Program-made: the position numbers and the translations under genes
From: an uncultured Candidatus Saccharibacteria bacterium
GTDB taxonomy: Bacteria; Patescibacteriota; Saccharimonadia; UBA4664; CAZOQX01
Direction of reading: 5' to 3'
NCBI GenBank assembly: GCA_964582465.1
Contig: CAZOQX010000001.1
Coordinates: forward strand, 89,214 to 153,213
Length of the DNA stretch: 64,000 bases
Shown here: positions 11,904-40,316 of the stretch, piece after piece
How positions within the stretch are numbered: position 1 is the first letter of the stretch
Layout: each line of letters starts with the position of its first letter
The notes under the pieces: generated by a model
Databases searched by the model: none
Seen by the model: the letters and a program-made list of their open reading frames with translations, nothing else
Told to the model about the DNA's origin: nothing

Positions 11904-12074
11904 TTGGGAAAGATCGAAGCACTAGTCATAATTCTGGTTATTGTCCTGGTTCTCTTCGGTGGTAAAAAATTGCCAGAGCTGGCCAGGGGTATTGGCCAAT
12001 CTGTTAAGGAAGTTCGTAAGGGCTTTACCGGTGATGTCGATGAGCCAAGCAAAGACGAAAAGCCCAAGTCCTAG
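11904..12074 (+). CDS. tatA: Sec-independent translocase TatA/E; missed by the ORF track because under 60 aa
   Basis: TTG start after a GGAG RBS. Translation (L)GKIEALVIILVIVLVLFGGKKLPELARGIGQSVKEVRKGF..., i.e. TM helix, hinge, FGxxKLPEL amphipathic helix. Immediately upstream of tatC. Confidence 0.7.
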   Translation: MGKIEALVIILVIVLVLFGGKKLPELARGIGQSVKEVRKGFTGDVDEPSKDEKPKS

Positions 12075-12080: not shown

Positions 12081-12968
12081 ATGAGCAAGGGCGTTGCCAG
12101 TCCGTTTTACACCCATGTTCAAGAATTTCGGCGCAGGCTATTCTGGACAGCTTTAGTTTTTCTGGGAGGCGCTGGAGCTGGCTATTTCTTTCGTTTACCA
12201 CTGACTAAGGTACTAAACCAGCCGATTGCTCAGCCACTTTTTTATACTTCTCCGAGCGGCGGGTTTGATTTCTACGTGAAGATTAGTTTGGCGGTTGGGT
12301 TGATGGCTGCAATCCCGGCAATTCTGTATCATCTTGTCCGTTTTATCGACCCGGCTTTTGAACGGAAAATCCATGGCCGACATCTAAGCTTGCTTGTCTT
12401 GCTCTCGTTTACGTTGATGCTAGCCGGCATGGCGTTCGCTTGGTTTGTGGTGTTACCAATGAGTTTGCACTTCTTTTCGAGCTATAACAGCCACTTTTTA
12501 AATCCACTCATCTCGGGTACGGAGTACCTCGCCTTTATTATCAACATGTTGGTAACATTTGCTCTCATTTTCCAGCTGCCCCTGCTGCTGCTGTCCGTCA
12601 ATTGGATTACCCCGATCAAGCCGCGCAAATTATTGAAGTTCCAACGCTACGTGATCGTGGGCAGCCTAATTATTGCCGTCATTTTGCCCTTTACCTACGA
12701 CCCAATTACCCAATTTGTGATTGCGCTGCCGATCATCGGTCTCTATGAATTCTCGGTGCTATTGATTTGGATGGTCAACCGCAGGCCGAAGTATAACTTT
12801 GACGCCTTCCCGAATTATCTACCACAGGACAATCTTAAGCTGGCTGGCCCAGAGCCGGCTACGGTGTTCGTCGATTTGCCTACGCTTGCCCCACCTGCGA
12901 AGATATCCCACCCTGTGCCCTCAAGGGTGCTTGACCTCAGGTCACCACAGCGTAATTACGCCGCTTAA
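12081..12968 (+). CDS. tatC: Twin-arginine translocase subunit TatC
   Basis: 295 aa, 6 TM helices. Conserved N-terminal region HVQEFRRRLFW. Confidence 0.9.
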   Translation: MSKGVASPFYTHVQEFRRRLFWTALVFLGGAGAGYFFRLPLTKVLNQPIAQPLFYTSPSGGFDFYVKISLAVGLMAAIPAILYHLVRFIDPAFERKIHGRHLSLLVLLSFTLMLAGMAFAWFVVLPMSLHFFSSYNSHFLNPLISGTEYLAFIINMLVTFALIFQLPLLLLSVNWITPIKPRKLLKFQRYVIVGSLIIAVILPFTYDPITQFVIALPIIGLYEFSVLLIWMVNRRPKYNFDAFPNYLPQDNLKLAGPEPATVFVDLPTLAPPAKISHPVPSRVLDLRSPQRNYAA

Positions 12969-15208: not shown

Positions 15209-18200
15209 CAGCTGGCCCCCGTTCTGGTAGAGGCTAAAGTTCTGGCGTTAGCGCGTGCCCTCGTGACTCCTATCACGCTGCGGGTTACGCTGTTCGGCCG
15301 AATGGCGGAGAAATTGAAGCCCGTGTTGCCCGAAACGTTAGTGCCACGATGAGCTGCCACGGGGATATTGCCAGTCACGGTGATATCGGTTAGAACATTA
15401 TTAGTTTGTGACCAAATACCGGTAGCACCGAGCGCAAATATAACGGGCGTGCCCGGAGTAGCGGAACTGATCGTAATGGGTGAACTAGATCGCCCGATTG
15501 TAGTCATGTACCCCGTAACTGTGAAGGTTTGACCGGCTTGAACGGAAATGGTGTTCACGTCTATAACCACATTCCTAAACGTCGGCGACTGGTTGAACGT
15601 AAACGCCGGTGTTGAGCGGCCTATGATGAGGTCGATATTAGTATAAACATTATTGCCCCAAGATAATTGATGCGGTGTGACTGCCGCCTTATCCCCGACG
15701 ACAATCTGTCCCGCTGATGGGCCGATAGTTGTAGCAGTAGCACTCAGGGTGTATGGCGTACCATTAACACCAATCCCCAACCCAGTGATGATAATTTTGC
15801 CATTATTAAAGGTCAAAACTTTGGTTTGTCCATTATTACCGTTAAAAAGCGGGGTAGTAAGAGCGAACCCATTTAAATTAAGTTCTCCCGTTCCCAAACT
15901 GTTTACGCCCGTTGCACTGGTGAGGGTCATATTATCCATTAATTTATAGCTACCTATGCCGGCTTGAATTTGGCAAGGGGGAGCAATAACGCCGCCTGTG
16001 GTGAGGGTTTGGATGCCTCCGCGTCCGTTATAAATAACTACGTTGTTGTACGTCCCATTCGTTGTTCCGGTCTGGTTCCAGTTGCCCCCAACTGTCACGG
16101 CACCACCGGCGTTGAAGCTTAGTGTGGGTCTATTTTTAACGGCCGAAAAATCAATATCTTTACCGATTCTTACTTGATCCACAGTGATGGTCATACTGGT
16201 TGAGCCGACTGATGCGGCGTTAATATTTACCGCGTCGTGGATTAAGGGGATACTGGCTCCACTTGACCCTCCCGATGAAGCCGACCACGAGTTAGTACTG
16301 GCCCAAGTAATGTTTGGATTTTTGACTGTCACTGTGGCGGCGTTCGTAGAGCTTTCGGTGAACGAGGCTGTACCGGCCGACTGCGTCGTAAAGTTGGCAT
16401 CAAAGGCTGTTGTCCCGGCAATACCGTTTAAAACTACGACTCGGTAAATGTTACCCGTTGCCCAGTTGGAAGTACCGCCGCCGTTACCGATTTCCAGTAG
16501 CTGTGTGCCATCAAACAAGCCCTCAATCGTGGTCGATATGTTTGCGCCTAGCTGCGTCCAGACACTCGGAACGCTGGCGGAATCAGCGGCGGTGAAGAAC
16601 TGCACCGTGCCGGTAGTGCTGTCTCTGGTTGCCCGTACCCACATAGTTGCTCCATTAGTAATACCATTTACCACCGTTGAAGTGGCAGTGCGGAGGGTTG
16701 AACCGTTGGCGCTAGTTCTAAGATTGAAGTTACCCGCCGTATCAACGTAAAAAGCATAGGAGCAGGTTGAGGTCGAGGCGTACTTTGCTGCTAAGTACTG
16801 AACGGCCGCAGGATTGGTCCAGTTATCTAGAGCGACCCTCACCCTTATATCAATCGAGCCGGTAATGGATAGGGCAGCTGAGTCAGGGGCGGTGGCTTCA
16901 CCTGTAGTTAAGCCATTCAGTCTTAAGTATGATCCGTTAAGAGCAGCTGCCGAAACCATATACCTTGTAACTGGGGTGGTAAATTTAGTGCCGGCATTGC
17001 CGTTGCCGTCACCAGAGAGCCCCGTCACCGCCGATAGATCGAGAGGGGTTGCCGTAGTGCCCCCAACCACCCACGTTGAGGCCGAATTAGCCTTTTCAAG
17101 CATAGAACCATCGATATAAAACGTAGTTGCTAGGGTGCCATTGACCTTGACTCCTACCTGCAGGGCATTGCCGAGCGTCGGGTGGGGAGTATTGCCCATC
17201 GTTAAAGTAATTGAGTACCGATCCCACCCTCCGGTAGCAGTACCACTGGAAGTGTAGACGGCACCGTTAGCCCCAAAGTCTACTCCCGCCAAAGTGATGG
17301 GTGTGCCGGCCGGAGCCAGGATATATGTTGAATACGTGTAGGTTGTACCCGACGCGCCATCGGGCAGGCCTTGGCTTGCGCCCAACACATATTGCCAAGC
17401 GCCTTCAGTGGCTCTGGCCGTATCAGTTACAACCTGGAAAGAATAATTTCCTTCCCAAGCAAAGTTAGAGCTAAAGGCGCTACTGGCAGCAGCATTGGCA
17501 GTAGAGTTGTTAGAGTTGGCGCTCCAGCCGCCACTTGAGATTTCCACCCTAGAGCAATGGGGCCTTAAGATATTGTCGCCGGCATTAAAGTTACTCTCCT
17601 TATAAAAGAAAATGTCCTGAAAGTCGCAATTGGAGATCGACGGGGTGTTAGTGTAAATGATATATCTGGCGCTGCCGACCGTGCCGTTGACCACGCTAAT
17701 ACGGTTTGTCACGCTATTGCCCGCAAAAGTGATATTAGTACAAGTCACCGTGGTACTAAGGGCAAGACTGTCTAGTTTAGAGGCCGTGCCGGTGCGAGTG
17801 AGGGTAGATATGGTTGTGCCAGTCGCTGCCGATGTTAAAACTGCCTGCCCGGTCCCCGTGAAGTTGACTGTGCCATAGGCTTGGCCACTGCCCGAAAAAG
17901 TAGCGGCCGCCCCACTTATGGTGATGGTTGAAGAAGCCGCTGAACAAGTTAAACCGGTAATCGCTCCCATGTTAAACGAGGTACCAGTACCAGTGATGGT
18001 TACATTAGCCGTACCAAATACAATCGTTCGGTTGTTTGAGTTATTGGTATTGAATAGTCCCCAAGAAATTGTCTGATTATTTAAATCAAGGGTTCCACTG
18101 CTGAGAGTGGTGGTCGAAGTAGCGGTAGACGTCCAAGCCCGGGTTAGTTGCCACGAACCACCGCTTTGGAACTGAACGTTCCCGGTAGTCGTACCTACAC

Positions 18201-18573
18201 CAAAGTCAACCGTCTGTACCGTTGCCGATGTCGAAGAGAACCTCAAGAGAGAATTTGTGGCACTCACTGGCGTATATGTTCCCGTGAACTTCCAAGCCAC
18301 GTTGCCCGGGCCTGGCGTAGCGTCTCCAATGTCTAATATAAAGGTGGTGTTGTGTGTGAGTGTGCCGGCATAATTGCCTGTCCCAGCGGTGCAGTCTAGG
18401 CTGCGGCAAGCGCCCGAGGCGTCGATAGTTACATTCCCTGAGCCGGCTTCAAAGATAACATTGTCGGCAGACGTTGGAGGTCCGGCCGAATCACCTCCAC
18501 CAGAACCAGTCGCAGACCATGTACCGGCAGCAGACCAGTTACCACCAGCGGCTTTAGCGTAAAGCGTGGCCAT
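15208..18573 (-). CDS. Giant paralogous beta-helix-like protein (1121 aa) with CBM4/9-like and LamG-like inserts, paralog 5
   Basis: Same N- and C-terminal modules. Internal carbohydrate-binding-module-like segment (...FYIDGSMLEKA...). Concanavalin-A/LamG-like segment (YLRLNGLTTGEATAPDSAALSITGSIDIRVRVALDNWT). Confidence 0.8.
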   Translation of the reverse strand: MATLYAKAAGGNWSAAGTWSATGSGGGDSAGPPTSADNVIFEAGSGNVTIDASGACRSLDCTAGTGNYAGTLTHNTTFILDIGDATPGPGNVAWKFTGTYTPVSATNSLLRFSSTSATVQTVDFGVGTTTGNVQFQSGGSWQLTRAWTSTATSTTTLSSGTLDLNNQTISWGLFNTNNSNNRTIVFGTANVTITGTGTSFNMGAITGLTCSAASSTITISGAAATFSGSGQAYGTVNFTGTGQAVLTSAATGTTISTLTRTGTASKLDSLALSTTVTCTNITFAGNSVTNRISVVNGTVGSARYIIYTNTPSISNCDFQDIFFYKESNFNAGDNILRPHCSRVEISSGGWSANSNNSTANAAASSAFSSNFAWEGNYSFQVVTDTARATEGAWQYVLGASQGLPDGASGTTYTYSTYILAPAGTPITLAGVDFGANGAVYTSSGTATGGWDRYSITLTMGNTPHPTLGNALQVGVKVNGTLATTFYIDGSMLEKANSASTWVVGGTTATPLDLSAVTGLSGDGNGNAGTKFTTPVTRYMVSAAALNGSYLRLNGLTTGEATAPDSAALSITGSIDIRVRVALDNWTNPAAVQYLAAKYASTSTCSYAFYVDTAGNFNLRTSANGSTLRTATSTVVNGITNGATMWVRATRDSTTGTVQFFTAADSASVPSVWTQLGANISTTIEGLFDGTQLLEIGNGGGTSNWATGNIYRVVVLNGIAGTTAFDANFTTQSAGTASFTESSTNAATVTVKNPNITWASTNSWSASSGGSSGASIPLIHDAVNINAASVGSTSMTITVDQVRIGKDIDFSAVKNRPTLSFNAGGAVTVGGNWNQTGTTNGTYNNVVIYNGRGGIQTLTTGGVIAPPCQIQAGIGSYKLMDNMTLTSATGVNSLGTGELNLNGFALTTPLFNGNNGQTKVLTFNNGKIIITGLGIGVNGTPYTLSATATTIGPSAGQIVVGDKAAVTPHQLSWGNNVYTNIDLIIGRSTPAFTFNQSPTFRNVVIDVNTISVQAGQTFTVTGYMTTIGRSSSPITISSATPGTPVIFALGATGIWSQTNNVLTDITVTGNIPVAAHRGTNVSGNTGFNFSAIRPNSVTRSVIGVTRARANARTLASTRTGAS

Positions 18574-20684
18574 TAGCTGGCTCCCGTTCTAGTTGATGCG
18601 ACTGTGCGGGCGGCAGAGACTGCTCTGGTTGAGGCTGAACTGTGAGCAACGGCTGAGGGGCGCACAGTACTGGTGGTGATGCCGGTGGTGTTAGAGAGAG
18701 TGCCGTGGTAAGCCAAGACAGGCCTGCGGGTACCGGTGACAGTGATATCTGTGATGGTGTTGTAGGCGGATTGCCAAGTACCTGAACCGAGAGCAATGGT
18801 GGCGTTTGAACCTGGCGTCGATGAGTTAATAGTGATCACCTTGGTGGGGTCGGCGACGGCGGTCAAGGCTCCAGTGATGGTTTGGGTAATGGCACTAGTC
18901 AGGGTAACAGTTTTGGGCGACTGGATAGTCACGTTAGCAAATGTGTTGGCACCGGTGAAAGTAACGGCTCCGATGCCGCCGCCAGCAATCACGAGGTTGT
19001 TGTAGGTTTTGCCGGCACCAGAGAACTGCTTTGACGAAGCCGTGGTGTTGGTGGAGTTGATAGTCGATGTCTGAGCGTTGACTGTGATGTTCGTGCCAAC
19101 AACCCAAAACTGACTAGTGCCAGTCAAGTTCCAAGTCCCCGAGCCCATGTTGATCGTAGTCCCGTTTATGGCTCCGGACGTGGTTTCGCCCACAGCCGTC
19201 ACGTTATGGCCGTTAGCGTCAAACGTACCTGAAGTGATACTTATAGTATTGCCAGGAATGACAAGATCGTCTTGTAGCGCATAAGTACCACCCGGTGCGG
19301 CGACTATGAACGCTCTTGGCATGGTCTTTCCGGCGCTTGTCATGGTGTAGTTCGAGCGGCCGCTAAGTTGGACTGAAATGTTCCCGCCGAAGGTCATTGC
19401 CGATGATAGGGTCAAAGAGCCAAAGAAGAAGTTCGTAATGCCGCCGCCACCGGACATAGTGAAGGTTCTGGTAAAGTCGGTGAAGTTGACGTTCTTTCCA
19501 AGCCTCGGCATATCTCCCGTCAGGGTCCCAGCCGTGGTTGTGTTGATGATGACGTCATCCTGGGGCAGCGGCACGCGTGAAGTCCAGGCAGCGGCACTCG
19601 ACCAGTTATTGGTTCCGCCAACGTAGGTCTGCGTAACTGGGGCATCAAACGTGATGTTCGAATTTCCTTGAGCATCCCCTAGCGACGTACCCGTCCAAGC
19701 AGCATTGGCTGGCAGGCCAGCTCCGGTGATGTCCTGAAAGTCCACGTTTGTCAGCGAAATGGCAGCCGCGTTGAGGGTACGTGACGTACCGACAGTGTCG
19801 CTCTGGACAAGCAACCTGTTGGTGGTCGAGTTGCCAGTAATTGTCAGCGTACCTGTAACAGTCAGGGTGTTGATCCCGAGAATTAGACTGTCTGTCTTGA
19901 CGTTGGTACCCGTTCTCGTAAAGTTTGCGACTGTCAGGTTGTTATTCAAGAGCTTGGGCGTACCGGCCCCAGAGAACACGACTGATGCGCCATTCAAGTT
20001 TAGCGCACTGGTCACTGGCTGTATTGTATTGTTCCCCGAGTAGGTCCCCGTGAATGTGAGGATAGCCGTGTTGGCTGTGACCGTGAGATTATCGGATCGG
20101 ATTTGGTTGGAACCTGTGCCGTTAAGTGTGATCAGTGAGTTGCCAAGCGTCAGCGTGCGCGTGTTGGCATTGTTGGAGGCGAACTGTCCCCAAGAGCAAG
20201 TCTGACCATTAGTATCTAGTGTACCCAGAGTTAGCACAACTGTTTGGCCACCTGAGTTGAAGGTACCAGTGAGCTGCCATGAACCGCCCGCCCCGTTAAA
20301 ATTCACCGGGCCGCTAGATGTTTGGTTGGCAAAATCGACTGCTTGGACAGTTGAGGAGGTTGATAAGAAGGAAATAGTACCACCAGCTGTATATGTCATA
20401 CCTGCCACAAATTTCAGAGCAATGTTGGAAGCACCTGGGGTGGAATCGCCAATGGCTAGGGTGATACCTCCCGAAGCCATTGCCAGAATATGTGTAAACC
20501 CAGTGCAGTTAATTGAACGACAATTGGAGGCTACGTCGATAGTGCAGTTGCCGGGTGAAGAGGCAGTGAAAAACACATCGTCAGCTGAAGTCGGGACGGA
20601 GAAACCAGAGCTACCACCATCAGAATCTGACCATGATGCGGTCGAGCTCCAGTTGGTGCCGCTGCCGACAAAATAGCGCGCCAC
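18573..20684 (-). CDS. Giant paralogous beta-helix-like protein (703 aa), paralog 4
   Basis: N-terminus MARYFVGSGTNWSSTASWSDSDGGSSGFSVPTSADDVFFT is a variant of the NW-S module. Conserved TRTGAS tail. TAATG coupling at both ends. Confidence 0.8.
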   Translation of the reverse strand: MARYFVGSGTNWSSTASWSDSDGGSSGFSVPTSADDVFFTASSPGNCTIDVASNCRSINCTGFTHILAMASGGITLAIGDSTPGASNIALKFVAGMTYTAGGTISFLSTSSTVQAVDFANQTSSGPVNFNGAGGSWQLTGTFNSGGQTVVLTLGTLDTNGQTCSWGQFASNNANTRTLTLGNSLITLNGTGSNQIRSDNLTVTANTAILTFTGTYSGNNTIQPVTSALNLNGASVVFSGAGTPKLLNNNLTVANFTRTGTNVKTDSLILGINTLTVTGTLTITGNSTTNRLLVQSDTVGTSRTLNAAAISLTNVDFQDITGAGLPANAAWTGTSLGDAQGNSNITFDAPVTQTYVGGTNNWSSAAAWTSRVPLPQDDVIINTTTAGTLTGDMPRLGKNVNFTDFTRTFTMSGGGGITNFFFGSLTLSSAMTFGGNISVQLSGRSNYTMTSAGKTMPRAFIVAAPGGTYALQDDLVIPGNTISITSGTFDANGHNVTAVGETTSGAINGTTINMGSGTWNLTGTSQFWVVGTNITVNAQTSTINSTNTTASSKQFSGAGKTYNNLVIAGGGIGAVTFTGANTFANVTIQSPKTVTLTSAITQTITGALTAVADPTKVITINSSTPGSNATIALGSGTWQSAYNTITDITVTGTRRPVLAYHGTLSNTTGITTSTVRPSAVAHSSASTRAVSAARTVASTRTGAS

Positions 20685-22834
20685 TAGTTCGCCCCCGTTC
20701 TGGTTGAAGATAAGGTGCGGGTGGCAGAAGCAGATCTGGTGGTGGCGGAGGTGTGGTTAATAGCAGAAGGTCTAATCGTGCTCGATGTGATGCCCGAGGT
20801 GTTCGATAGCGTGCCGTGATAGGCCAAGACTGGTGTGCGGGTACCGGTGACGGTGATGTCAGTAATGGAATTGTAGCTAGAGCTCCAGGTGCCGGAAGTG
20901 CCAAGAGCGACGGTGGCGGCCGAGCCACCGGTGACAGCATTGACGGTAATGGGATTGGCGGGGGTGCCCAGTGTAACTATCGAGCCTGTGATCGTTTTGG
21001 TTTGACCAGACTTAAACTGCAGCGTCTTAGGACCACCCTGGATAAAGATATTGGCAATTGTTGGTGAGCTATCGAAGAATATGACCGCACCGGTACCACC
21101 GCCGGCAATATATATATTGCCATAGATTGCAGTACCCAGGCTAAGGGTTTTCGACGTGGCCGAAACATCCGACACATAAATGCTAGCTAAGGCTGCACTA
21201 ACCGTAATACCAGAAGTAGCTACATTCCAGATTGTGCCATTACCGGTAATCATCCATTTGCCCGTGCCCATATTGAGAGTGCGGGTGTCAGTGGTAGTTG
21301 AAGTGAAACTCCCGCACCTCACATTAAACCCATTAGCATCGAAGGTGCCGTTACTTAAAGTTATCCCGCCCGACGCGCCAGTATCAATCGAGTAGTTATC
21401 CTGAAGGGTATAACTGCCGCCTGGCGCCAGGAAATTCCAAGCTTCGGGGAAACGCTTACCGCCCGATGTGATAGTCTGGGCGCCGCGACCCCGAAAGTTG
21501 CTGGAAAAGTTGCCGCTAATGCTGAAATTATTGGTCGCTATCAGGTTACCGAAGATATTGGCACCAATCGTAAAGCTAATGGTGCCAGTAAAGCCCGTGA
21601 AATTGATATCCTTCCCCCAACGCGGCATGTCAGCTGTGATGGTACCGGACGCGCTACCGTTGATGATCACATTATCTTGAGGTAATGGCACGCGGCTAGT
21701 CCAGTTACCGGCTGTCGACCAGCTGCCACCGGCGCCAGAACGTGTTTGCGTAGCCGGTGTATCGAATGTGATGTTGGAATTGCCTTGACCATCTCCCAGC
21801 GAGGTTCCGGTCCAGGCGGCATTCCCGGGCAACCCCGCCCCGGTAGTATCTATAAAATCGAGGTTTGTCAGCGAAATGGCGGCGGCGGTAAGCGTACGAC
21901 TAGTCCCAACGGTGCTAGATTGAACCAATAGACGGTTGGTAGTGGAATTACCAGCCAGGGTCAGGGTATTGGTGACGGTCAGGTTGGATAGTATGTTCAA
22001 AACTTCGGTTTTGGCTGCGATTGAAGACGTAAAAGTGAAGTTAGCACAGGTGGTTGTGCCAGCATTGGTAGAACCAAGCGACATGGTTTGAACCACCGTA
22101 GGGGCATATACAATGTTATTATAAGTCGCCACACCACCGGCAAATGCACCGGTGCTGCCGGTTAAAGTGATGGTTGAGCCGCCCGCATTCAGAGTAAGAC
22201 CAGTAGTAGTGGCTGTAGTCCAGGACGTGCCTGTACCAGTAATCGTTATGTTCGAGTTGCCAAGCGTTAAACTTCTAGTGTTTGAGTTATTGGAGTTAAA
22301 TAGTCCCCACGAGCAGGTTTGCCCATTGGTATCGAGAGTACCTTGGTTGTGCGTAACTGTCCCGCCAGTGCCCATATTGAGTGCTCCCGTCAGCTGGTAA
22401 TTACCGGTTGTATTACCGGACCCAAAAGTGACAATGTTGGACATAGTTTTTCCCTTACAATCAACCGCCTGCTGAGTGGCTGAGGTTGATCTAAGTAAGA
22501 GTTGGGCTGACTTATTCGTGCCCAGTGTATACGTCATACCGGTGGAGAATTTAAATGCGACGTTTCCGGCCCCGGCTGTGCCATCTCCAACATTAAGAAG
22601 AGTTGAGTCATTATGGGTTAGGATTCCACCGTAGTCGCCTGTGCCAGCAGTGCAGTCGACCGAGCGGCAGACGGAGTTAACGTCAATCGTGACGTTCCCA
22701 CTGCCCGTTTCGAAAATGACATCATCAGCTGCCGTCGGTGGCCCAGAGGAATCGCCGCCTGCAGATGAGACATTGCTCCAAGTACCGGCTGCACTCCAGT
22801 TACCACCAACCGCTTTGGCGTAGAGAGTGGCCAT
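20684..22834 (-). CDS. Giant paralogous beta-helix-like protein (716 aa), paralog 3
   Basis: N-terminus MATLYAKAVGGNWSAAGTWS... C-terminal tail ...TRTGAN. Stop/start overlaps. Confidence 0.8.
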   Translation of the reverse strand: MATLYAKAVGGNWSAAGTWSNVSSAGGDSSGPPTAADDVIFETGSGNVTIDVNSVCRSVDCTAGTGDYGGILTHNDSTLLNVGDGTAGAGNVAFKFSTGMTYTLGTNKSAQLLLRSTSATQQAVDCKGKTMSNIVTFGSGNTTGNYQLTGALNMGTGGTVTHNQGTLDTNGQTCSWGLFNSNNSNTRSLTLGNSNITITGTGTSWTTATTTGLTLNAGGSTITLTGSTGAFAGGVATYNNIVYAPTVVQTMSLGSTNAGTTTCANFTFTSSIAAKTEVLNILSNLTVTNTLTLAGNSTTNRLLVQSSTVGTSRTLTAAAISLTNLDFIDTTGAGLPGNAAWTGTSLGDGQGNSNITFDTPATQTRSGAGGSWSTAGNWTSRVPLPQDNVIINGSASGTITADMPRWGKDINFTGFTGTISFTIGANIFGNLIATNNFSISGNFSSNFRGRGAQTITSGGKRFPEAWNFLAPGGSYTLQDNYSIDTGASGGITLSNGTFDANGFNVRCGSFTSTTTDTRTLNMGTGKWMITGNGTIWNVATSGITVSAALASIYVSDVSATSKTLSLGTAIYGNIYIAGGGTGAVIFFDSSPTIANIFIQGGPKTLQFKSGQTKTITGSIVTLGTPANPITVNAVTGGSAATVALGTSGTWSSSYNSITDITVTGTRTPVLAYHGTLSNTSGITSSTIRPSAINHTSATTRSASATRTLSSTRTGAN

Positions 22835-25800
22835 CAGCTGGCCCCCGTTCTAGTTGAGGATAAAGTGCGGGGGGCTGAAAGAGATCGGGTAGAAGCAGAA
22901 CTATGTGGAGTGGCAGAGGGTCGTTTGGTAGTAAAGTCAAAGCCGGTGTTGCCGGAAACATTAGTACCGTGATAAGCGAGGACGGGGGTACGGGTACCGG
23001 TCACAGTGATGTCTTGAATTGAGTTATATGAGGATACCCAGGTACCGGAGGTGCCGAGGGCGATGGTGGCGGGGGTACCCGAAACTGTCGAGTAAATATG
23101 GGTGCGTTGTGAATCCAGCCCCCAACGATTAGCCAGATAATATTCTATTGAACTTAAGTTTGGTATGGTTAAGGCCTGGTTGTAGATTAAAACCTCAAAA
23201 ATATCGCCTACAAAAAATTCAGAATCGTTATTTCTGGCCCCAATTCTGCCAGAGGTAAAGGTAGCGGTGTTATTGACCATTGCGACTGGGTTTGTTACTT
23301 GAGCCCCATCTTTTCTTGAGAAGCCAGAGTCTGCTGCCCAGTAAGAAGTAAAAATATGGGGGTCAGTGTCCAGAGGAGTATAGCGATCGGTACGAGTTAC
23401 TCCGTCATCCCCAGCCCGTGTTTGACCAAATTGCGTCCCATTGGTGATTGCAAACAGATATATATTTGATACACCTCCTAATCCAATAATATCTTTGTTG
23501 CTCGCTGTATTTGTTGCCCTTGCCACTACAAACACAACACAAGGAACATCATTGCCAGCCATCGCAGCCACTAAACCTGCGGGCATAACCATATCATCAT
23601 TCACCCCATCAAAGCGCATTGAGGCCATCCCATTCATAACATTAGTCGTGTAGGTTGGTCTGGCTGTGCCAGATTGGGTAACATCAAAGCCATTACCCGA
23701 TTGATCTTGCCAGGTTGATACGGGGTCACCATTTGACCCTGAGTATTGATCGGCTTTAAGCCATAGTTTGCATCCTGCAATTGAGGTTGGAACTATGATT
23801 GCAGGGTTGGTTGAGCCCGGGCCAATGGTTGTGATCGATTGATTAACCGTCGTAACCTGCGATACAGGAAAGATCAAAGTCTTTTGTCCTTGTCCACTGA
23901 CAATAATCTTATTGAACGTGTTCGCCCCGGTAAAAGACAGTGCTTGGGGAGTATCTTGGGCATATCTCAGGATATTGTAGCTCCAGCCACCGCCCGCAAA
24001 GGTCTTATCTACTATGCCCTGACCCGTCAGGCTGATGGTAGAGGTTCCCGAATTAAGTGAAACCATTGTTGTCGCAGCAGTCCAGACCGTACCTGTACTG
24101 TTCACTGTCCATATACCCGCCCCCATGGTGATGGCTGTCTGTCCCTGAAAAGTAATAGTCGTCGCTTTAACGTTATGATTGTTGGCTGAGAAAGTTGTCC
24201 CGACGGCAATCACTAAATTACGGTTTATCCCCATGTCAAAATCATCTTGGAGGGTATAGTTGCCGCCTGGAGCTGCAATTGTGGTAGTGGCTGTCCCTGC
24301 CATCGCGTGACCCGCCATCGTTATGGTATAAGTTCCTCTGCCTTGGAGTTGAAGATTTATTCCCGTCCCAAAGGCGGTTCCAACACCAGCCCCCAAGGTA
24401 AGACTTCCATATAAGATAGGGGCACCAGTCAGGCTTAGGGTTGGAGAGCCCGTTGCCCCGCTAAAATCAAGACTCTTGCCCAATCGAGGCATATCCATGG
24501 TCACGCTTCGCCCCGCCACAAAAGCATTATTTACAACTACGTTATCTTGAGGGAGCGGGACTCTAGTTGTCCAGCCATGAGTGCTCCAGGTGAAAGAGGC
24601 CGTCCCGGTGGCAGTTTGCGTAGCGGCAGGAGTAAAGGTCATCCCCCCATTGCCGCCAGCATCTCCCGACTTGCCTGTTATGGCCGAGAGATCAACTGGG
24701 GTGGTGGCCGTTCCTCCAACTACCCAAGTGGAGGCCGAGGAGTTTTGTTCAAACATCATCCCATCCACATAGAAGGTGGCGGCAACAGCGGCGTTGGTTG
24801 ATACGCCAAGCATTATGGCATTGCCTAGTGTTGGCGAAGGATTATGGCCTGACGTGAAGGAGACGGATAATCTATCCCATGTTCCTAAACCAGTTGCCGT
24901 ACCAGTTCCGGTGTAAACCGTTCCGTTATTACAGAAGTCACAAACAGCCACTCTGAGTGGGGTTCCGGCTGCTGCCTGAACGTAGGCTGAGAAGGTATAG
25001 GCGGTGTCAGACTGAGCATCGACTAGACCTTGGGCTTTGCCCATCACGTATTCCCACATCCCCTGCAAGCTCACACTTCCTGAAGTTGTCAGCTTCATAC
25101 AGTAAGTCCCTTGCCAAGGAGTAACTTCGGTACTTACCGCCCCGGTTAAGGCGATGTTAGAGGTTGAGTTATTAGAATTGAAGCTCCAGCTGCCGATAGA
25201 AAGAGTCTCAAAAGAGGAGTCGGCTACTCTCATGATGTTGCCTCCTGCCGTATAAGCCGAGTTTTTAAACATTAGAATGTCGGCAAAATCGACGTTGGAA
25301 GTAGTCAAGGTAGTACCGTAAGCAAGATATCGCATTGTCCCCACAGTGTTGCTTTGCACAATCAGGCGATTAGTAACGGAGTTGCCAGCCAGCGTCAGCG
25401 TACCGCTCACGTATATACCAGAGCCACCCAGCGCGACTGACCCCGTTAGAGTCGCTGGCCCATTGACGGTTAGATTCGCCAAGATAAACGATGCGGTACC
25501 CGCCAACGTTATAGCCGAGCCATTGAGCGTAAATGATGCGCCGTTCATATTGAGGGCATTGGAAACATTAAAACCACCAGCGGAAAGTGTCCACGTTGAT
25601 GTGTTTGCCGAGACTGTCAGTAAAGTAGCATTAACCAAAAACGCGGAATTGGACGAGGAGGTGAGGGTTATGGCACTAGCTCCGAGAGTAAGTACTGCCG
25701 TAGTAGAGAGGCTATGAGCGAAAGTGTTCCACGAACAGGTTTGCCCGTTGGTATCTAAAGTTCCAGCGCTCAAAGTAAGGTTTCGACATGTCACACCGGA

Positions 25801-26238
25801 TGAGAATTGCCAACTGGCACCAGCGCCATTAAATGTAACATCAGTTGATGCCCCTAAATTTTTAGCCACGAAATCAACGATCTGTTGGGTCGTAGAGGTA
25901 GATATAAAACTGATAGTAAGAGCCCCCACTGCCGTATAGGTCATACCTGCCGAGAACTTTAGGGCTACGTTCCCTGCGCCAGCCGTTGCATCCCCAATGC
26001 TCAAGACAAAGGCGTTATGGGTCAACGTTCCACCGTAGTTACCAGTTCCCGAAGTACAATCTAAAGAACGGCAGGCGGAAGTAGCATCGATCGTGACGTT
26101 GCCGCTTCCCAATTCAAAGATCACATTATCTGAGGCGGTTGGCGGCCCCGCACTGTCTGCCCCCCCAGATCCTGTTGCGGACCACGTACCCGCCGCAGAC
26201 CAGTTACCACCCGCGGCTTTGGCATAAAGTGTAGCCAT
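22834..26238 (-). CDS. Giant paralogous beta-helix-like protein (1134 aa) with CBM4/9-like and LamG-like lectin inserts, paralog 2
   Basis: CBM-like segment (...ATFYVDGMMFEQNSSASTWVVGG). LamG-like jelly-roll segment (LWLKADQYSGSNGDPVSTWQDQSGNGFDVTQ...RFDGVNDDM...). Conserved N- and C-terminal modules. Confidence 0.8.
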   Translation of the reverse strand: MATLYAKAAGGNWSAAGTWSATGSGGADSAGPPTASDNVIFELGSGNVTIDATSACRSLDCTSGTGNYGGTLTHNAFVLSIGDATAGAGNVALKFSAGMTYTAVGALTISFISTSTTQQIVDFVAKNLGASTDVTFNGAGASWQFSSGVTCRNLTLSAGTLDTNGQTCSWNTFAHSLSTTAVLTLGASAITLTSSSNSAFLVNATLLTVSANTSTWTLSAGGFNVSNALNMNGASFTLNGSAITLAGTASFILANLTVNGPATLTGSVALGGSGIYVSGTLTLAGNSVTNRLIVQSNTVGTMRYLAYGTTLTTSNVDFADILMFKNSAYTAGGNIMRVADSSFETLSIGSWSFNSNNSTSNIALTGAVSTEVTPWQGTYCMKLTTSGSVSLQGMWEYVMGKAQGLVDAQSDTAYTFSAYVQAAAGTPLRVAVCDFCNNGTVYTGTGTATGLGTWDRLSVSFTSGHNPSPTLGNAIMLGVSTNAAVAATFYVDGMMFEQNSSASTWVVGGTATTPVDLSAITGKSGDAGGNGGMTFTPAATQTATGTASFTWSTHGWTTRVPLPQDNVVVNNAFVAGRSVTMDMPRLGKSLDFSGATGSPTLSLTGAPILYGSLTLGAGVGTAFGTGINLQLQGRGTYTITMAGHAMAGTATTTIAAPGGNYTLQDDFDMGINRNLVIAVGTTFSANNHNVKATTITFQGQTAITMGAGIWTVNSTGTVWTAATTMVSLNSGTSTISLTGQGIVDKTFAGGGWSYNILRYAQDTPQALSFTGANTFNKIIVSGQGQKTLIFPVSQVTTVNQSITTIGPGSTNPAIIVPTSIAGCKLWLKADQYSGSNGDPVSTWQDQSGNGFDVTQSGTARPTYTTNVMNGMASMRFDGVNDDMVMPAGLVAAMAGNDVPCVVFVVARATNTASNKDIIGLGGVSNIYLFAITNGTQFGQTRAGDDGVTRTDRYTPLDTDPHIFTSYWAADSGFSRKDGAQVTNPVAMVNNTATFTSGRIGARNNDSEFFVGDIFEVLIYNQALTIPNLSSIEYYLANRWGLDSQRTHIYSTVSGTPATIALGTSGTWVSSYNSIQDITVTGTRTPVLAYHGTNVSGNTGFDFTTKRPSATPHSSASTRSLSAPRTLSSTRTGAS

Positions 26239-29000
26239 TAGCTAGCTCCTGTTCTAGTTGAGGCTACCGTGCGGGTAACGGCCGTAGACCTTGTTGTGGC
26301 TGGGGTGTGTGGTATAGCGGATGGCCGGACGGTACTTGATGTAATACCAGTGGCGTTAGAAAGAGTGCCGTGGTAGGCCAACACGGGGATGCGAGTACCG
26401 GTGACAGTACAATCGGTAATGGAGTTGAAAGCCGAGGACCAAGTGCCAGAAGTGCCGAGACCGACAGTGTATCCCTGTCCGGGAGTGCTCGAATTGAAGG
26501 TAATAGCCTTTGTTGAAGTCCCTAAACTTATGATGTTTGATACGTTAGTAGTGCTTCCTGCGAATGTAGTAACAGTTGTTCCTGCTGGGATATAGATATT
26601 GTGAAAATTTCTACCGGGTGCACCCGTAGAAGTTCCAAAATTGATAACACCAGTTCCTCCAGCAAATCTCAAGTCGTATAAGGTAAATGCTCCCAAGACA
26701 AGAGTCTTCTGAGTAGAGGTCGTGTTGGCAATGATGATTTCTGACGTTGATGGGTTAACCGTAAGATTAGTAACCCCAGAAACGGTAAAAACAGTTCCCG
26801 TTGCCGTTAGTATCAGCTTACCCGATCCCATATTAAAGACTGTTCCTGCTACTGTAGGGGATGAGGAGAAGCCACCACAAGTAAAGTTATGGTTGTTCAT
26901 ACTAAAAGTTCCTGAGTTAAATCCAGAAGCAGAGGCAGAGTTTGAGACAAAGTCATCCTGAAGGGTATACGAACCTGCTAGGGCGTTTATTGACAGTACA
27001 CCCGTCCAAGTTACCCCACTTGAAGTGATTGTGTGCGCACCACGGCCTCTTAATATCTGGCTTTGGCCACCCGAAAAAGTCATGCCCGATCTTAAGGTGA
27101 TACTCCCATAATAAGAGGGGCCGCCCGATACAACAGCGGCGCTTGACAAGGTAAACGCCACAGTTGACCCCGAGCAATCAACATTGGCGCCAATATGGTT
27201 CATTTCGATTGTGACAGTTTTACTGGCCGTTCCCATATTGATAAAGACGTTATCTTGAGGCAGCGGAATACGAGAAGTCCACGAAGTTACAGCTGACCAG
27301 TTGGCGCTGGTTTTATTTATAGATACGGTAGCGGCATTGGCTGAGGATTCAGTAAACGAGAGGGCGTCTACAGATTGAGCCGTAAAGTCAGCATTAAAAA
27401 CGGGTGTCCCCGCCCCTGATCCTAAGGCTGAGCCATAGATTTTAGCATTGTAAACATTCCCTTTCAAAAGAGCATTCGTGCCGGCTGTATTAGAGCCAAC
27501 CTCCAAAATGCTAGTAGTATCTGCGATAGTAGCTACCCCCACCGTTGTAATTGTCGTCCCAAGCTGAGTCCATGTAGAGCCGTCATCTGACATATAAAAA
27601 TTACAGACTCTGTGTCCAGCACCGTCGTTTAACGTTAGCGAGCCTCGTAACCATTTAGTGGAGCCATCTGCCAGGCCAGTCGCGACACTTGATATATTAT
27701 TTAGAAAGTTAGTCCCATCGGCTGATGTTCTCATTTGGAGTGTCCCCGCAACCAGAACTTCCAAGCCATAAGCGAACTGACCAGAAACTGCTACCTTAGC
27801 AACGGTCTCGTTATTTGCTGCCGGTGTCCAGTCGTCCAGTGATACTTTGACGTCTATTGTAATATCAGTTGTTATCGATAGAGCTGCTGAGTCGGGAGCC
27901 GAAACATAACCACCCGACACACCATTTAACCTCAAGCTTGTACCCGTTAGTTGGGCTTGCCCATAGTATTGGGTAACTGGCGAAGGGAAAGTGATGCCGG
28001 AATTTCCTAGGCAATCTCCGAGCAAAGTTCCGGTTAAACTGCCCGCAGAACCAGTGATGATAATATCCATAAAATCAACATACTGGTGGGCACCGTGTGA
28101 GCCATTGACGGTAATGGTTGTAGTTTGGCCAGCAGTACCAGAAAAAACAAGAACTCGGTTTATGGCAGAGTTGCCACTTAATGTAAACGTGCCCGTGACG
28201 GTAATTGCCCCTGTAATTTGAAGACCAAACCCTTTATTGACCGGGCCAGTGTAGGTGAAATTTGTGATGGTTGGGCCAGATGAGACGGTTTGGGTGGCAT
28301 TGGCTAATCCGAAAGAGACAGTGCCATAAGTCATACCCGCCCCGCCCGAAAAGACATTGGAGCCATTTCCGTTTAAGTTAATGGTTGAAGAGGCGGCAGA
28401 CAGCGTAAGGTTTCCTACATTTGTCATCGACCAACTGCCTGAGCTGTTGTTTAGCAAAATCGTGGAAGTTCCGACAGTGATTGACCTGACGTCAGTTGTG
28501 GTTGACGTGAAGGACTTTAAGGTCATATTGAAGTTGGCGGTGTTGAAGGTTCCTTTGTTGACGTTAAAGGTCGTCGAAGAGATGAAGGCATCCTGGAGGG
28601 TAACCGTTCCGCCATTGGTTGACCCTGTAAAACCGATGGCGATAGGACAAGACCAGGTTTTTGTAGCCGTAGTTAAGGCACAGGTTCCGCCCGATGCTGC
28701 AATAGTAATAGTACCTGCATAGGTCATCGTCCCCATCGTGGAAGCCAAAGTTAAATCACCCCGTACTGTTAGATTGAAGGTCCCCGCGAATATGCCGGTA
28801 TAACCGGTGCCACCAGCAAAGGTGAGACTGGCACAGTCGGCGGCCTGGTTGACGGTTACGGTGCCGCCACCGGAAGAGCTATCAAAAGTTACAGGGTCAG
28901 TCGAAACTGGCACCGAAAAACCGCTAGAACCACCAGACGAATCCGACCAGTGAGCCGTATCGCTCCAGTTACCGGTACCGCCAACCCAAAAGCGCGCCAT
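26238..29000 (-). CDS. Giant paralogous beta-helix-like protein (920 aa) with LamG-like insert, paralog 1
   Basis: N-terminus MARFWVGGTGNWSDTAHWSDSSGGSSGFSVPVSTDPVTF. LamG-like segment LRLNGVSGGYVSAPDSAALSITTDITIDVKVSLDDWT. C-terminal TRTGAS tail. Confidence 0.8.
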   Translation of the reverse strand: MARFWVGGTGNWSDTAHWSDSSGGSSGFSVPVSTDPVTFDSSSGGGTVTVNQAADCASLTFAGGTGYTGIFAGTFNLTVRGDLTLASTMGTMTYAGTITIAASGGTCALTTATKTWSCPIAIGFTGSTNGGTVTLQDAFISSTTFNVNKGTFNTANFNMTLKSFTSTTTDVRSITVGTSTILLNNSSGSWSMTNVGNLTLSAASSTINLNGNGSNVFSGGAGMTYGTVSFGLANATQTVSSGPTITNFTYTGPVNKGFGLQITGAITVTGTFTLSGNSAINRVLVFSGTAGQTTTITVNGSHGAHQYVDFMDIIITGSAGSLTGTLLGDCLGNSGITFPSPVTQYYGQAQLTGTSLRLNGVSGGYVSAPDSAALSITTDITIDVKVSLDDWTPAANNETVAKVAVSGQFAYGLEVLVAGTLQMRTSADGTNFLNNISSVATGLADGSTKWLRGSLTLNDGAGHRVCNFYMSDDGSTWTQLGTTITTVGVATIADTTSILEVGSNTAGTNALLKGNVYNAKIYGSALGSGAGTPVFNADFTAQSVDALSFTESSANAATVSINKTSANWSAVTSWTSRIPLPQDNVFINMGTASKTVTIEMNHIGANVDCSGSTVAFTLSSAAVVSGGPSYYGSITLRSGMTFSGGQSQILRGRGAHTITSSGVTWTGVLSINALAGSYTLQDDFVSNSASASGFNSGTFSMNNHNFTCGGFSSSPTVAGTVFNMGSGKLILTATGTVFTVSGVTNLTVNPSTSEIIIANTTSTQKTLVLGAFTLYDLRFAGGTGVINFGTSTGAPGRNFHNIYIPAGTTVTTFAGSTTNVSNIISLGTSTKAITFNSSTPGQGYTVGLGTSGTWSSAFNSITDCTVTGTRIPVLAYHGTLSNATGITSSTVRPSAIPHTPATTRSTAVTRTVASTRTGAS

Positions 29001-29049: not shown

Positions 29050-30630
29050 CTACCTATAACTGATCGTGACGTTGACGTCTGCCGTGGTGGTAAAGTCGGC
29101 GTAAAGTCCCGTATTAAATTTACTGTTAATAGTAACTGAGAGCGGCATGAAGAAGGTCGTCGTAAAAGCGGTTGAAAATATCTTAGTGCCAGAGTTGGTG
29201 GTGTTATCGTAAATATCCAAGTTTCCAGCGGTGGGAGCGGAGTCGTTACAAGCAAAGGTGATGGTGTGAATGAAGCCGGCACCCGATTTGATGAGTGTAT
29301 CGGCAGTCACCATGTTGTAGCTCATCTGCTGCTCGACCTTCATGACGTCGTTGGTTTGGTCTTCGCCGGCCACCTTAGTGGCTTGGGTGACGTACAGGGC
29401 ACCGTTAGCGTCTACCTGGAAGGGTTCGTAATCGCCGTTAGTGTTGCCAGCCGAAAGGTCGGTAGGGGTGGATTGGCGGATACCCAGTACCATAAAGCCA
29501 GTGTCGCCGGAGGTGTGGGCCGCATCCTCATTCTTGGCTGCGGCCAGACGAATACGACCGGCTGAGTCAACCGCTATCGGCGAATAGTCACCGTCAGTAT
29601 CGGTCAGGGTGATGGCGTTATCATTTCTGACACCCAGGCTCATCACTCCGGTATCACCGGAAACGTGGGGAGCGTCTTCGGCTTTACCGAGATTGGCTGC
29701 ACCAGTGCCGGGGGTAACGGACCCGGTAGCATTAGATTTAATGTTTACATCAAGTGCATTGCTAGTTGAGCCAATGACGTTGCCGGAGCCGTCAACTACC
29801 TGAGTTTTTTGGCTACCATCAGACTGCTTGGCGCTAGTGGAGGCACCGGTGGGGAGCGAAACTGTTCCGGAAACATTATTAACATTCCAAGTGCCTGATT
29901 GCGTAGCAGCAACGGTGCCGTCAACGGTAATTGAGTTGCCGCCATCTTGAATGTTGACGGCGTTAGCTCCAGAGCCATTATTAACCTTTGTTCCTACGTC
30001 AGTCTGGTCGCTGGCAATTACAACTGGTGTTGATCCGGCCATGTTGGCCTGCCCCTTGTCGGGAGTTTTGGTATCGATTGAATCCAGCGAAGTATTGCCA
30101 ACATCTTGCTTAGCTTCGGTAGCGGCTCCACTGGGTAGGTCCACACTAGCATCCACTTGCACTTTGCCGTCTTTAACGGTTCCGGCGAGGGTTCCCAGCT
30201 TGGTGTTGCCGTCGTTTTGCTTTTCTTCCGTCGCAGGGTTAATGCGCCCGCCAGCAGCGTTTTTCAGGCCAACCACACCACTAACTGTGCCACCGGAATC
30301 ACTAGGCTGCCAAGTTGATGTACTAGAATCGTAAGCCAGTACTTGACCGCCGCGGGGAGTAATGTCGGCTAAACTTTGGCCGCGCAAGCTCAAGGCGTCG
30401 CGAGCATTTCTTAAAGCAGCTCGAACCTCGGGTGATAAATCAGATACCGGAACACCATCTGCCGGCTTGGTGTACTTCCGCCGAACGTTACTTTCGACGT
30501 CGACGAGACCCGCTACTCCGATTATACCCAATGCGCCGAGACCAAGCTTGGCTAAGAAATCCTTACGACTGAGTGGTTGGTTGATTTGCTCGGGTAGATC
30601 AGGAAGGTGTTGCGAGAAACTCGGTTCCAT
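29050..30630 (-). CDS. Repetitive fibre-like Thr/Ser/Gly/Asp-rich protein (526 aa) with a Tat-like N-terminal signal; first gene of the giant-protein operon
   Basis: N-terminus ...LSRKDFLAKLGLGALGIIGVAGLV is an S-R-K-x-F-L Tat-like n-region plus h-region. Repeated xTE(A/E)KQ(D/N)xGNT motifs. Two ~50-aa tandem repeats (DAPHVSGDTGVMSLGVR... / DAAHTSGDTGFMVLGIR...). Confidence 0.7.
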   Translation of the reverse strand: MEPSFSQHLPDLPEQINQPLSRKDFLAKLGLGALGIIGVAGLVDVESNVRRKYTKPADGVPVSDLSPEVRAALRNARDALSLRGQSLADITPRGGQVLAYDSSTSTWQPSDSGGTVSGVVGLKNAAGGRINPATEEKQNDGNTKLGTLAGTVKDGKVQVDASVDLPSGAATEAKQDVGNTSLDSIDTKTPDKGQANMAGSTPVVIASDQTDVGTKVNNGSGANAVNIQDGGNSITVDGTVAATQSGTWNVNNVSGTVSLPTGASTSAKQSDGSQKTQVVDGSGNVIGSTSNALDVNIKSNATGSVTPGTGAANLGKAEDAPHVSGDTGVMSLGVRNDNAITLTDTDGDYSPIAVDSAGRIRLAAAKNEDAAHTSGDTGFMVLGIRQSTPTDLSAGNTNGDYEPFQVDANGALYVTQATKVAGEDQTNDVMKVEQQMSYNMVTADTLIKSGAGFIHTITFACNDSAPTAGNLDIYDNTTNSGTKIFSTAFTTTFFMPLSVTINSKFNTGLYADFTTTADVNVTISYR

Positions 30631-30687: not shown

Positions 30688-30761
30688 ATCTTTTTGCCTA
30701 GCCGTAAGCATTTGGTGTTGAAGGTTTTGCCTAATATTTTTTGACTAGCTATGCTAGAGCC

Positions 30762-38645: not shown

Positions 38646-38880
38646 CGAAGAGATCGCCGTGGAGGTCGCCACCACCGGGGGTATCCCTGCTTCGTTCAAA
38701 TGGCGGGGGCGGACCTACCAAGTGGTCGATGTAATCGGCCGCTGGCGGATCGAAGGCAGGTGGTGGGATGATGGTCGCGATCGCGAGTACTGGCGGGTGG
38801 AAGCCCGCGGCGGGGCGGTCTGGGATCTCTACCTCGACCGTACCACCAATGTTTGGACGCTCGAGCGGCTCTGGGACTAG
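38629..38880 (+). CDS. Hypothetical Trp/Arg-rich protein (83 aa), second gene of the high-GC cassette
   Basis: ATG inside the 3' end of the RHH gene. MAKRYDEEIAVEVATTGGIPASFKWRGRTYQVVDVIGRWRIEGRWWDD... No known toxin fold recognised. Confidence 0.5.
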   Translation: MAKRYDEEIAVEVATTGGIPASFKWRGRTYQVVDVIGRWRIEGRWWDDGRDREYWRVEARGGAVWDLYLDRTTNVWTLERLWD

Positions 38881-38890
38881 GGAGGTTCGA

Positions 38891-40307: not shown

Positions 40308-40316
40308 CTTCCGAAT

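Follow-up and report, generated by a model that had tools for sequence, protein, structure and literature searches.

A phage tail-fibre-type protein with a Tat-like N-terminal leader heads an apparently foreign beta-solenoid cassette in a Saccharibacteria genome

We analysed a 64,000-nucleotide stretch of DNA from an uncultured Candidatus Saccharibacteria bacterium (GenBank assembly GCA_964582465.1, contig CAZOQX010000001.1, positions 89,214 to 153,213 of the forward strand; hereafter the window), centring on the first gene of a minus-strand cluster. The gene encodes a phage tail-fibre-type protein whose N terminus carries a 44-residue leader resembling signals for export by twin-arginine translocation (Tat), and together with six giant beta-solenoid paralogues it makes up a 17.6-kb, seven-gene cassette between lepA and tatC. 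At a rough probability of 0.55, we favour the reading that the fibre is exported or membrane-tethered and displayed on the cell surface, the Tat and the general secretory (Sec) routes being sub-cases of it. Judged from sequence, a phage-type fibre with a Tat-like or anchor-like leader at the head of a phage-type beta-solenoid cassette in a cellular genome appears to be new, and it is seen in a single genome.

The fibre open reading frame (ORF) starts with ATG and diverges from lepA (30741-32543, plus strand), the two start codons lying 110 nt apart; on its other side, a 49-nt gap separates it from the first giant gene on the same strand. Because no in-frame ATG or GTG is found from M1 to residue 60, the N-terminal extension is part of the ORF. 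A mis-called start, whose correction would delete the leader, was thus ruled out; the one in-frame TTG (L34) lies inside the hydrophobic stretch.

The body of the protein is well supported as a receptor-binding protein of the phage tail-fibre type. When 5.8 billion proteins were searched, 2542 matches were returned, nearly all of them within residues ~150-420, that is, in the repeat and shaft region, and every contig of a homologue that was inspected proved to be phage-like. Two of these have SU10-type adaptor and portal genes (L001, L002), one is a 78-kb contig with small ORFs and RNA ligases (L003), and one encodes a primase and a DNA polymerase along with a Mu-type baseplate (L169). GenBank phages gave three weak partial matches only. 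No family for the fibre body was found in Pfam or NCBIfam, and sequence searches of the PDB returned 0 relatives. When the fibre and the giants were searched against Pfam, NCBIfam, PHROGs and PADLOC, nothing useful emerged beyond a weak match to phrog_28102, a match to phrog_10356 and a sub-threshold match to NF038009. The PF21934 label ('Yop-YscD_ppl_3rd') carried by homologues was disregarded, as it is the sum of short repeat matches of which no stretch passes alone. One homologue with a Sec-like N terminus, P0075 (8001-10604 of the Mu-like L169), directly follows an NlpC/P60 gene and is set apart from the baseplate genes; instead of a fibre of the virion, it may be an accessory protein that the phage has secreted.

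The shaft is modular and repetitive, and it ends in a distal beta-sandwich tip. An earlier note on this DNA had described two tandem repeats of about 50 aa, and these are present as quoted, at residues 319-363 and 369-414. The two ~47-aa units give a local alignment score of 110, against 22.7 +/- 4.5 in 2000 shuffles (z = 19), and a repeat hidden Markov model (HMM) built from homologues detects exactly two copies, at residues 316-361 (independent E-value 3e-27) and 366-414 (9e-25). In homologues, copies of this EDAAH-type repeat number four in the median and nine at most. The periodic KQ motif reported alongside them, 'ATE(E/A)KQxxGNTxL', holds for two copies (residues 133-146 and 170-183), the third (264-277) being degenerate, and it belongs to a larger module of about 50 aa. 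For the model, Foldseek gave as best PDB matches, which concern the C-terminal domain, chain A of the cyanophage A4 structure 9k09 (E 1.7e-4) and the carbohydrate-binding domain (CBD) of the short tail fibre of cyanophage A-1(L) (8ke9, E 5.7e-4). In BFVD, 69 matches to the tip domain were found at E <= 1e-3, including phage proteins of ~100 aa (TM-scores 0.7-0.78) as well as tail-fibre C termini, and the weak phrog_28102 match agrees with these fold matches. The tail-fibre likeness proposed in the earlier note is thus borne out by homologues in phage contigs, by the fold of the tip and by known fibre modules in the shaft.

The N-proximal part of the protein differs from that of its relatives at its very end. 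An exhaustive HMMER search with residues 1-132 detected 444 representative proteins, the matches covering two repeated fibre modules (residues 45-125). In three of them (P0374, P0381 and P0307) both modules occur in the same order, behind a MxRLPxPGxDDGTWGxxLNDFL module, which we infer to be the virion-docking end. In the window fibre this module is absent and the 44-residue leader stands in its place. Since the N-terminal module of the relatives is replaced by the leader, a domain swap is the most economical reading: the putative docking module would have been lost and the leader gained.

Within the leader, SRKDFLAKLG occupies residues 21-30, as the earlier note had read it, and is followed by 15 uncharged residues, LGLGALGIIGVAGLV, five of which are glycines. 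When set against the Tat consensus S-R-R-x-F-L-K, S21, R22, D24 (as x), F25 and L26 fall in place and the lysine is displaced by one position (A27-K28). At 15 residues, the h-region has the length (at least 13 uncharged residues) and the moderate hydrophobicity of a Tat signal. Directly after it come four Lys or Arg residues within positions 44-58. V45-E46-S47 ahead of N48 obeys the -3/-1 rule and is a candidate signal-peptidase site, although no AxA is present. Neither a lipoprotein nor a type IV pilin signal was found, there being no Cys in residues 1-60 and no G/F-T-L-I-E prepilin motif. Hessa-scale sums are -0.1 for the 15-mer and +1.85 kcal/mol for the best 19-mer, closer to a signal peptide than to an anchor. 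The Kyte-Doolittle mean over 19 residues is 2.04; the usual threshold for a transmembrane segment on that scale is 1.6. Of 4801 background ORFs and proteins, 1 showed the combination of [ST]R[RK]xF[LIVM] with 13 uncharged residues, and among all ORFs of the window the fibre protein is the sole credible case of (RR/RK/KR)x[FGAVML][LITMVF] with such a 13-residue uncharged N terminus. No other gene of the seven encodes an N-terminal hydrophobic segment, so that the claim of a sole export-signal-like N terminus in the locus holds.

As a description, then, an RK variant of a Tat-like signal is apt; as an assignment it falls short, since the twin arginine itself is absent. R22-K23 stands in its place, and the default regular expression of TatP, RR.[FGAVML][LITMVF] (PMC1182353), is not matched, which counts against Tat. 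The native leader is not reported by TIGR01409, a curated Tat-signal model, at E <= 10. The same leader with K23R introduced in silico passes it, at 17.2 bits against a cutoff of 16.7 (residues 20-38, 19 of 29 profile positions), and a KK version is again not reported. No Pfam family was matched by the native leader (the presence of Pfam's Tat-signal model in the searched copy was left unchecked), and the K23R form gave a weak match to UCR_Fe-S_N (E 0.1). A further match, to NF038009 ('TatB_1, twin-arginine translocation system-associated protein'), covers residues 17-45 (30496-30582) at 19.9 bits, far under its cutoff of 100; its scores (16.5-19.9 bits) are higher for the native RK leader than for the RR or KK variants, and we draw no reading from it. 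A word-index search with residues 1-132 found 0 orthologues of the leader.

Table 1. Features of the fibre gene, the giant genes and the tat genes, with positions in the window
Feature	Position	Strand	Description
Fibre gene	29050..30630	-	Phage tail-fibre-type protein with N-terminal Tat-like leader, 526 aa; first gene of the minus-strand cluster
Leader, n-region	30571..30630	-	aa 1-20, MEPSFSQHLPDLPEQINQPL; polar/acidic, Pro-rich; no homologue detected
Leader, Tat-like motif	30547..30570	-	aa 21-28, SRKDFLAK; fits S-R-R-x-F-L-K save for second R to K and K displaced by one
Leader, h-region	30502..30546	-	aa 29-43, LGLGALGIIGVAGLV; 15 aa with 5 Gly; only marginally hydrophobic for a transmembrane helix to be stable
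Leader, c-region	30478..30501	-	aa 44-51, DVESNVRR; start of basic cluster, no AxA (sequence reading)
Fibre module 1	30379..30477	-	aa 52-84, KYTKPADGVPVSDLSPEVRAALRNARDA...; 'YxKPxxGIPxxDLxxxVQxSLxxAD', one copy; predicted helix 67-84
Fibre module 2	30295..30378	-	aa 85-112, QSLADITPRGGQVLAYDSSTSTWQPSD; '..P.dGQVLxYdxxxxxWxPg'; order as in MPRLPxPG-type fibres
Shaft module, partial	30178..30234	-	aa 133-151; ~50-aa 'KQxxGN' module
Shaft module, full	29995..30147	-	aa 162-212, strong copy; 'LPxGAATxAKQxxGNTSLxSIDTKxPxxGQAxMAxSxPVVIASDQ'
Shaft module, second copy	29731..29865	-	aa 256-300; weaker (moderate) copy
Tandem repeat 1	29548..29685	-	aa 316-361; KAEDAxHxSGDTG...DGDYxPxxVDxxGxxxV
Tandem repeat 2	29389..29535	-	aa 366-414
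Tip domain	29053..29313	-	aa 440-526; 8-strand beta-sandwich, pLDDT 75-89; type of phage tail-fibre tips and stand-alone phage domains
Giant paralogue 1	26238..29000	-	920 aa; without signal peptide
Giant paralogue 2	22834..26238	-	1134 aa; start overlaps preceding stop; insert matches phrog_10356 'virion structural protein'
Giant paralogue 3	20684..22834	-	716 aa
Giant paralogue 4	18573..20684	-	703 aa
Giant paralogue 5	15208..18573	-	1121 aa
Giant paralogue 6	12974..15208	-	744 aa; modelled as two-module beta-solenoid with disordered S/T/R-rich tail
tatC	12081..12968	+	Pfam TatC, 2.4e-45; native-type codon usage
tatA	11904..12074	+	56 aa, ...FGGKKLPELARGIG...

The cassette is, by its codon usage, foreign to the rest of the window. 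Correlations of relative synonymous codon usage with native genes range from -0.20 to 0.41 for the seven cassette genes, against 0.41-0.85 for 24 native genes; when the housekeeping set is split in two, the halves show a correlation of 0.94. Its source was probably a phage. All seven ORFs are intact (526-1134 aa) and tightly packed. On inspection by eye of the ORF translations, without profile searches, the window, which includes type IV pilus genes, comEC and a dnaK operon, showed none of the genes for a capsid, portal, terminase, tail tube, integrase or lysis. Integration beside a tRNA was ruled out, as no tRNA is found at the cluster borders. A scan of the cluster for promoters and terminators gave no excess over shuffles, so that calling it an operon rests on gene order and overlapping junctions only.

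The six giants form one family, 36-54% identical to the 744-aa copy in a 16-sequence alignment, with stop/start overlaps at each junction between them and common N termini of the type MATLYAKAAGGNWSAAGTWS. The model of the 744-aa giant (pLDDT 89.8, pTM 0.86) consists of two tandem all-beta modules and a disordered tail; its PDB fold matches are to autotransporter passengers, adhesins, PL6 lyases and tailspikes, all beta-helices or beta-solenoids, and none is significant. At the DNA level the paralogues are 66-78% identical even in their best-conserved segments, which points to old duplicates; recent gene conversion or cassette switching among them was ruled out on the same figures. The family is common in viral contigs: IMG/VR gave at least 495 matches, and metagenomes at least 363. 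Most loci have one copy, which in L007 follows the capsid gene at a distance of a few genes. In cellular genomes the family forms small clusters in which a signal-less MPRLPxPG fibre comes first (L005, on a contig of 817 kb, and L008). A conserved pairing of this fibre with giants was ruled out, none of the 163 other giant-containing loci having a homologue of the 526-aa fibre.

Several further features of the giants were noted. The last ~30 codons of all six (within 12974-29000) encode a conserved tail, ...RPSAxxHxSAxTRSxSAxRTxxSTRTGAS, which is S/T/R-rich, predicted to be disordered and absent from the 114 other giant homologues listed; it is a possible sorting, wall-binding or partner-docking peptide. 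Two giants (22834-26238 and 15208-18573) carry large inserts. That of the 1134-aa giant (residues 822-1056) matches phrog_10356 at 7e-17 and, by sequence and by the neighbours of its homologues, resembles a Laminin_G_3/lectin-like domain; separate Laminin_G_3 genes accompany the related clusters L002, L005 and L171. Six giant-family proteins (P0149, P0158, P0171, P0210, P0213 and P0219) have a Sec-like leader that ends exactly before ATLYAK. One of them, P0210 (L170, 8001-10001), belongs to a phage-like contig in which a GDSL lipase is encoded two genes before it and an SU10-type adaptor three genes before it, and a signal peptide on such an apparent phage structural protein is odd. Another family member, P0240 (L171, 8001-11204), is fused to a type IV pilin N terminus (G/FTIVEIL...) and lies within a cluster of N_methyl pilins and a prepilin peptidase, with ligA and ftsW close by, which suggests pilus- or pseudopilin-linked display of a phage-type beta-solenoid in a cellular genome.

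The genes tatA and tatC are both present in the window, the 56-aa ORF with FGGKKLPELARGIG being taken as TatA by its motif. The earlier note had them adjacent to the fibre gene; in fact they lie on the opposite strand at the far end of the cluster, ~16 kb from it, where tatC and the last giant converge, their stop codons 5 nt apart. The gene tables of three related genomic loci (L005, L008 and L171) were read and showed no tat genes. As tatC is native by codon usage and the cassette foreign, and as tat is missing from these three loci, the two probably became neighbours by an accident of insertion. One report describes Tat as rare in Saccharibacteria (PMC6031116).

On the reading that we favour, a phage-type fibre would have reached the cellular genome inside the horizontally acquired seven-gene cassette, with its N-terminal module exchanged for the leader. 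The leader would act as an export signal or as a weak N-terminal membrane tether with N-in/C-out topology, so that the shaft and the beta-sandwich tip would lie beyond the cytoplasmic membrane, and the protein would serve as a binding fibre of the cell surface. Such a leader would not be isolated. Sec-like leaders on six fibre homologues (P0005, P0025, P0026, P0075, P0111 and P0118) and on giant-family proteins (P0149, P0210, P0219), and the pilin leader of P0240, suggest that phage-type modules of both families have repeatedly been equipped with leaders of these kinds.

A number of observations weigh against surface display. Some of the signal-bearing homologues sit in phage-like contigs (L169, L170), so a leader alone is no proof of a cellular function. 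The charges flanking the h-region are symmetric, +1 on each side, and give no topology bias. In the exhaustive HMMER search the matches covered residues ~45-125 only and left the leader (residues 1-44) an orphan, without relatives that would show conservation of its RK pair or selection on it. A leader-bearing fibre upstream of giants was found at 0 of the 163 other giant loci, and the pairing thus occurs in one genome only, while the signal-less fibre and giant clusters of L005 and L008 show that such cassettes occur in cellular genomes without a leader. The six window giants have no export signal, and a surface role of the whole cassette would need a further step. Finally, the AlphaFold2 monomer model of the full fibre has a mean pLDDT of 59 and is poor outside the C-terminal domain; low confidence in the shaft is what would be expected when one chain of a fibre that needs its partners is modelled alone.

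Concerning the route, export by Tat is a tentative possibility. TatC would recognise the RK leader, and the fibre would fold, and probably trimerise, in the cytoplasm before crossing through TatA/TatC; it would then be released after cleavage, possibly at V-E-S/N48, or be retained by a Rieske-like uncleaved N-terminal anchor. Cytoplasmic folding, the normal course for phage fibres, would suit Tat. So would S, R, F and L in register at residues 21-26, the long (20-residue) n-region, the short, Gly-rich and weakly hydrophobic h-region (+1.85 kcal/mol for its best 19-mer), the single K23R change that lifts the leader over the TIGR01409 cutoff, and the tatA and tatC genes of the window. The four basic residues after the h-region amount to a 'Sec-avoidance' feature, and Rieske proteins are a known case of Tat signals that stay uncleaved as N-terminal anchors (PMC7317946). 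SufI and TorA-GFP with the second Arg changed to Lys are still exported, at a reduced rate (PMC1182353). On the other hand, the defining pair is lacking, the native leader goes unreported by TIGR01409 and matches no Pfam family, and even the K23R form clears the cutoff barely, over 19 of 29 positions. In E. coli, export is slower or impaired when either arginine is replaced by lysine (PMC1182353, PMC7317946), a residue called 'poorly tolerated' (PMC7317946); the TatP expression alone matches 23% of membrane proteins with RR near the N terminus (PMC1182353). There is no AxA site, the Sec-like N termini of homologues suggest that the fibre family needs no Tat, and the tat genes are distant and convergent, tatC being native in codon usage next to a foreign cassette, with no tat genes at the three related loci. 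The most far-reaching version, in which the RK leader is a working Tat signal and the six giants dock onto a fibre already folded and oligomerised in the cytoplasm, crossing with it as 'hitchhikers' to give a Tat-dependent, phage-derived multi-adhesin fibre, strikes us as improbable. The six giants do share conserved N- and C-terminal regions; Tat hitchhiking is known mainly for redox enzymes (PMC4273604).

The leader could also be a signal anchor inserted by Sec/YidC or an ordinary Sec signal, the RK pair providing just the positive charge of an n-region and its Tat likeness being coincidental. Taken by itself this is rather doubtful; the signal anchor, which the earlier note had named as its alternative, and Tat come out about equally likely. 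A 20-residue acidic and polar stretch ahead of the basic pair would be unusual for a Sec signal, the hydrophobic core has just 15 uncharged residues with five glycines and a positive Hessa sum for its best 19-mer, and the S-R-x-x-F-L register is rare (the 1 in 4801 of the background). The Kyte-Doolittle mean, in turn, exceeds the usual transmembrane threshold, the curated Tat model leaves the native sequence unreported, and six fibre homologues and several giant homologues begin with hydrophobic segments like those of ordinary Sec signals. Lys and Arg are equivalent for Sec, which fits this reading; four basic residues right after the h-region, which hinder translocation of the C-terminal side, speak against it (PMC7317946). 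It is unlikely, in our view, that the protein is not exported at all. The cassette would then be a cryptic, satellite or decaying receptor-binding set of a phage, made for a virion or tailocin, and the hydrophobic N terminus would be incidental, or else would tether the fibre to the cytoplasmic face (N-out, C-in) until lysis. Such an origin fits the phage association of both families (the IMG/VR matches and the giant near a capsid gene), the foreign codon usage, the absence of signals from the six giants and from the fibres of comparable cellular clusters, and the orphan state of the leader. Symmetric flank charges are compatible with N-out/C-in, and PblA/PblB set a precedent of signal-less proteins that reach the surface by phage lysis. 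It is harder to reconcile with seven long, intact and tightly coupled ORFs, with a window in which no phage head, tail, integrase or lysis genes were seen by eye and no tRNA borders the cluster, and with a Tat-like register unlikely to arise by chance. Moreover, the module missing from the fibre is exactly the one that would dock to a virion.

If the leader works, the cell would have turned a phage receptor-binding fibre into a surface appendage of its own by swapping its presumed docking end, and the six diversified phage-type beta-solenoids alongside would be a plausible toolkit for attachment to other cells. Should export run through Tat, the repertoire of that pathway would gain a natural signal of the RK type, and with it a cargo that is very large, fibrous and possibly oligomeric. 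If the leader is non-functional, the locus would be a stranded phage receptor-binding cassette.

Elsewhere in the window, a dnaN-like gene (59132-60274) has a GC content of 0.65 and a third-position GC content (GC3) of 0.82, and the genes next to it (stretch 59132-62972) have GC3 values of 0.65-0.75, compared with 0.54-0.64 elsewhere. Positions 38696-43139 reach a GC content of 0.587 in places and contain long overlapping ORFs on both strands, with a tRNA-Lys at 41416-41491. Both stretches are possibly further foreign islands or an assembly chimera. A 162-aa ORF between housekeeping genes (9569-10057, minus strand) has, by eye, a CHC2-type zinc-finger-like motif (CPAHSEKTPS...CHGC) and is primase-like, of a kind met in mobile elements.

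Among known systems, the MPRLPxPG..DDGTWG fibres (P0374, P0381, P0307) are nearest to the window fibre in architecture, sharing with it both N-proximal modules (KYxKPxxGIPxxDL... and ...GQVLxYD...WxP) and their order; fibres of this type also stand ahead of giant-family genes in the cellular genomes of L005 and L008. Unlike the window fibre, they start with MPRLPxPG and lack a hydrophobic segment, and the distal part of the window fibre (KQ modules, EDAAH repeats and beta-sandwich tip) belongs to another fibre family. The A-1(L) CBD (8ke9) and chain A of the A4 portal-tail complex (9k09), the best fold matches of the tip, are virion proteins without leaders, and match the window fibre at only 14% identity and with low whole-chain TM-scores. 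PblA and PblB of the Streptococcus mitis phage SM1 are tail-fibre-type proteins that act as adhesins on the bacterial surface. They are signal-less, encoded in an intact prophage and released by lysis, whereas the window fibre has a leader and no prophage was seen around it.

The chloroplast Rieske protein carries KR. The N terminus of Rieske Fe-S proteins resembles the leader in having a single weakly hydrophobic helix between a Tat-type motif and basic residues, an arrangement that would tether a folded domain N-in/C-out (PMC7317946); Rieske proteins have RR and a cofactor that forces cytoplasmic folding, and the window fibre has RK, no cofactor and no homology to them. Variant Tat signals (KR in Salmonella TtrB, RNR in penicillin amidase, engineered RK in SufI and TorA) show that one Arg can be replaced with transport kept (PMC1182353). 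The natural variants cited there are KR or RNR, in contrast to the RK of the window leader, and RK was studied in E. coli mutants, whose rates were reduced. As to surface fibres, the only Tat-dependent fimbria described is archaeal, from a haloarchaeon: the Tat-fimbriae ('tafi') of Haloarcula hispanica (PMC11821415). They differ from the window fibre in their donor-strand-exchange, pilin-like subunits with canonical Tat signals, in the lack of a phage tie and in sharing no homology with it. With a Tat-exported subunit that builds a filamentous surface structure, tafi are nonetheless the nearest case of Tat plus surface fibre (PMC11821415), and, should the window fibre take the Tat route, it would be a case of Tat-dependent surface-fibre assembly in bacteria.

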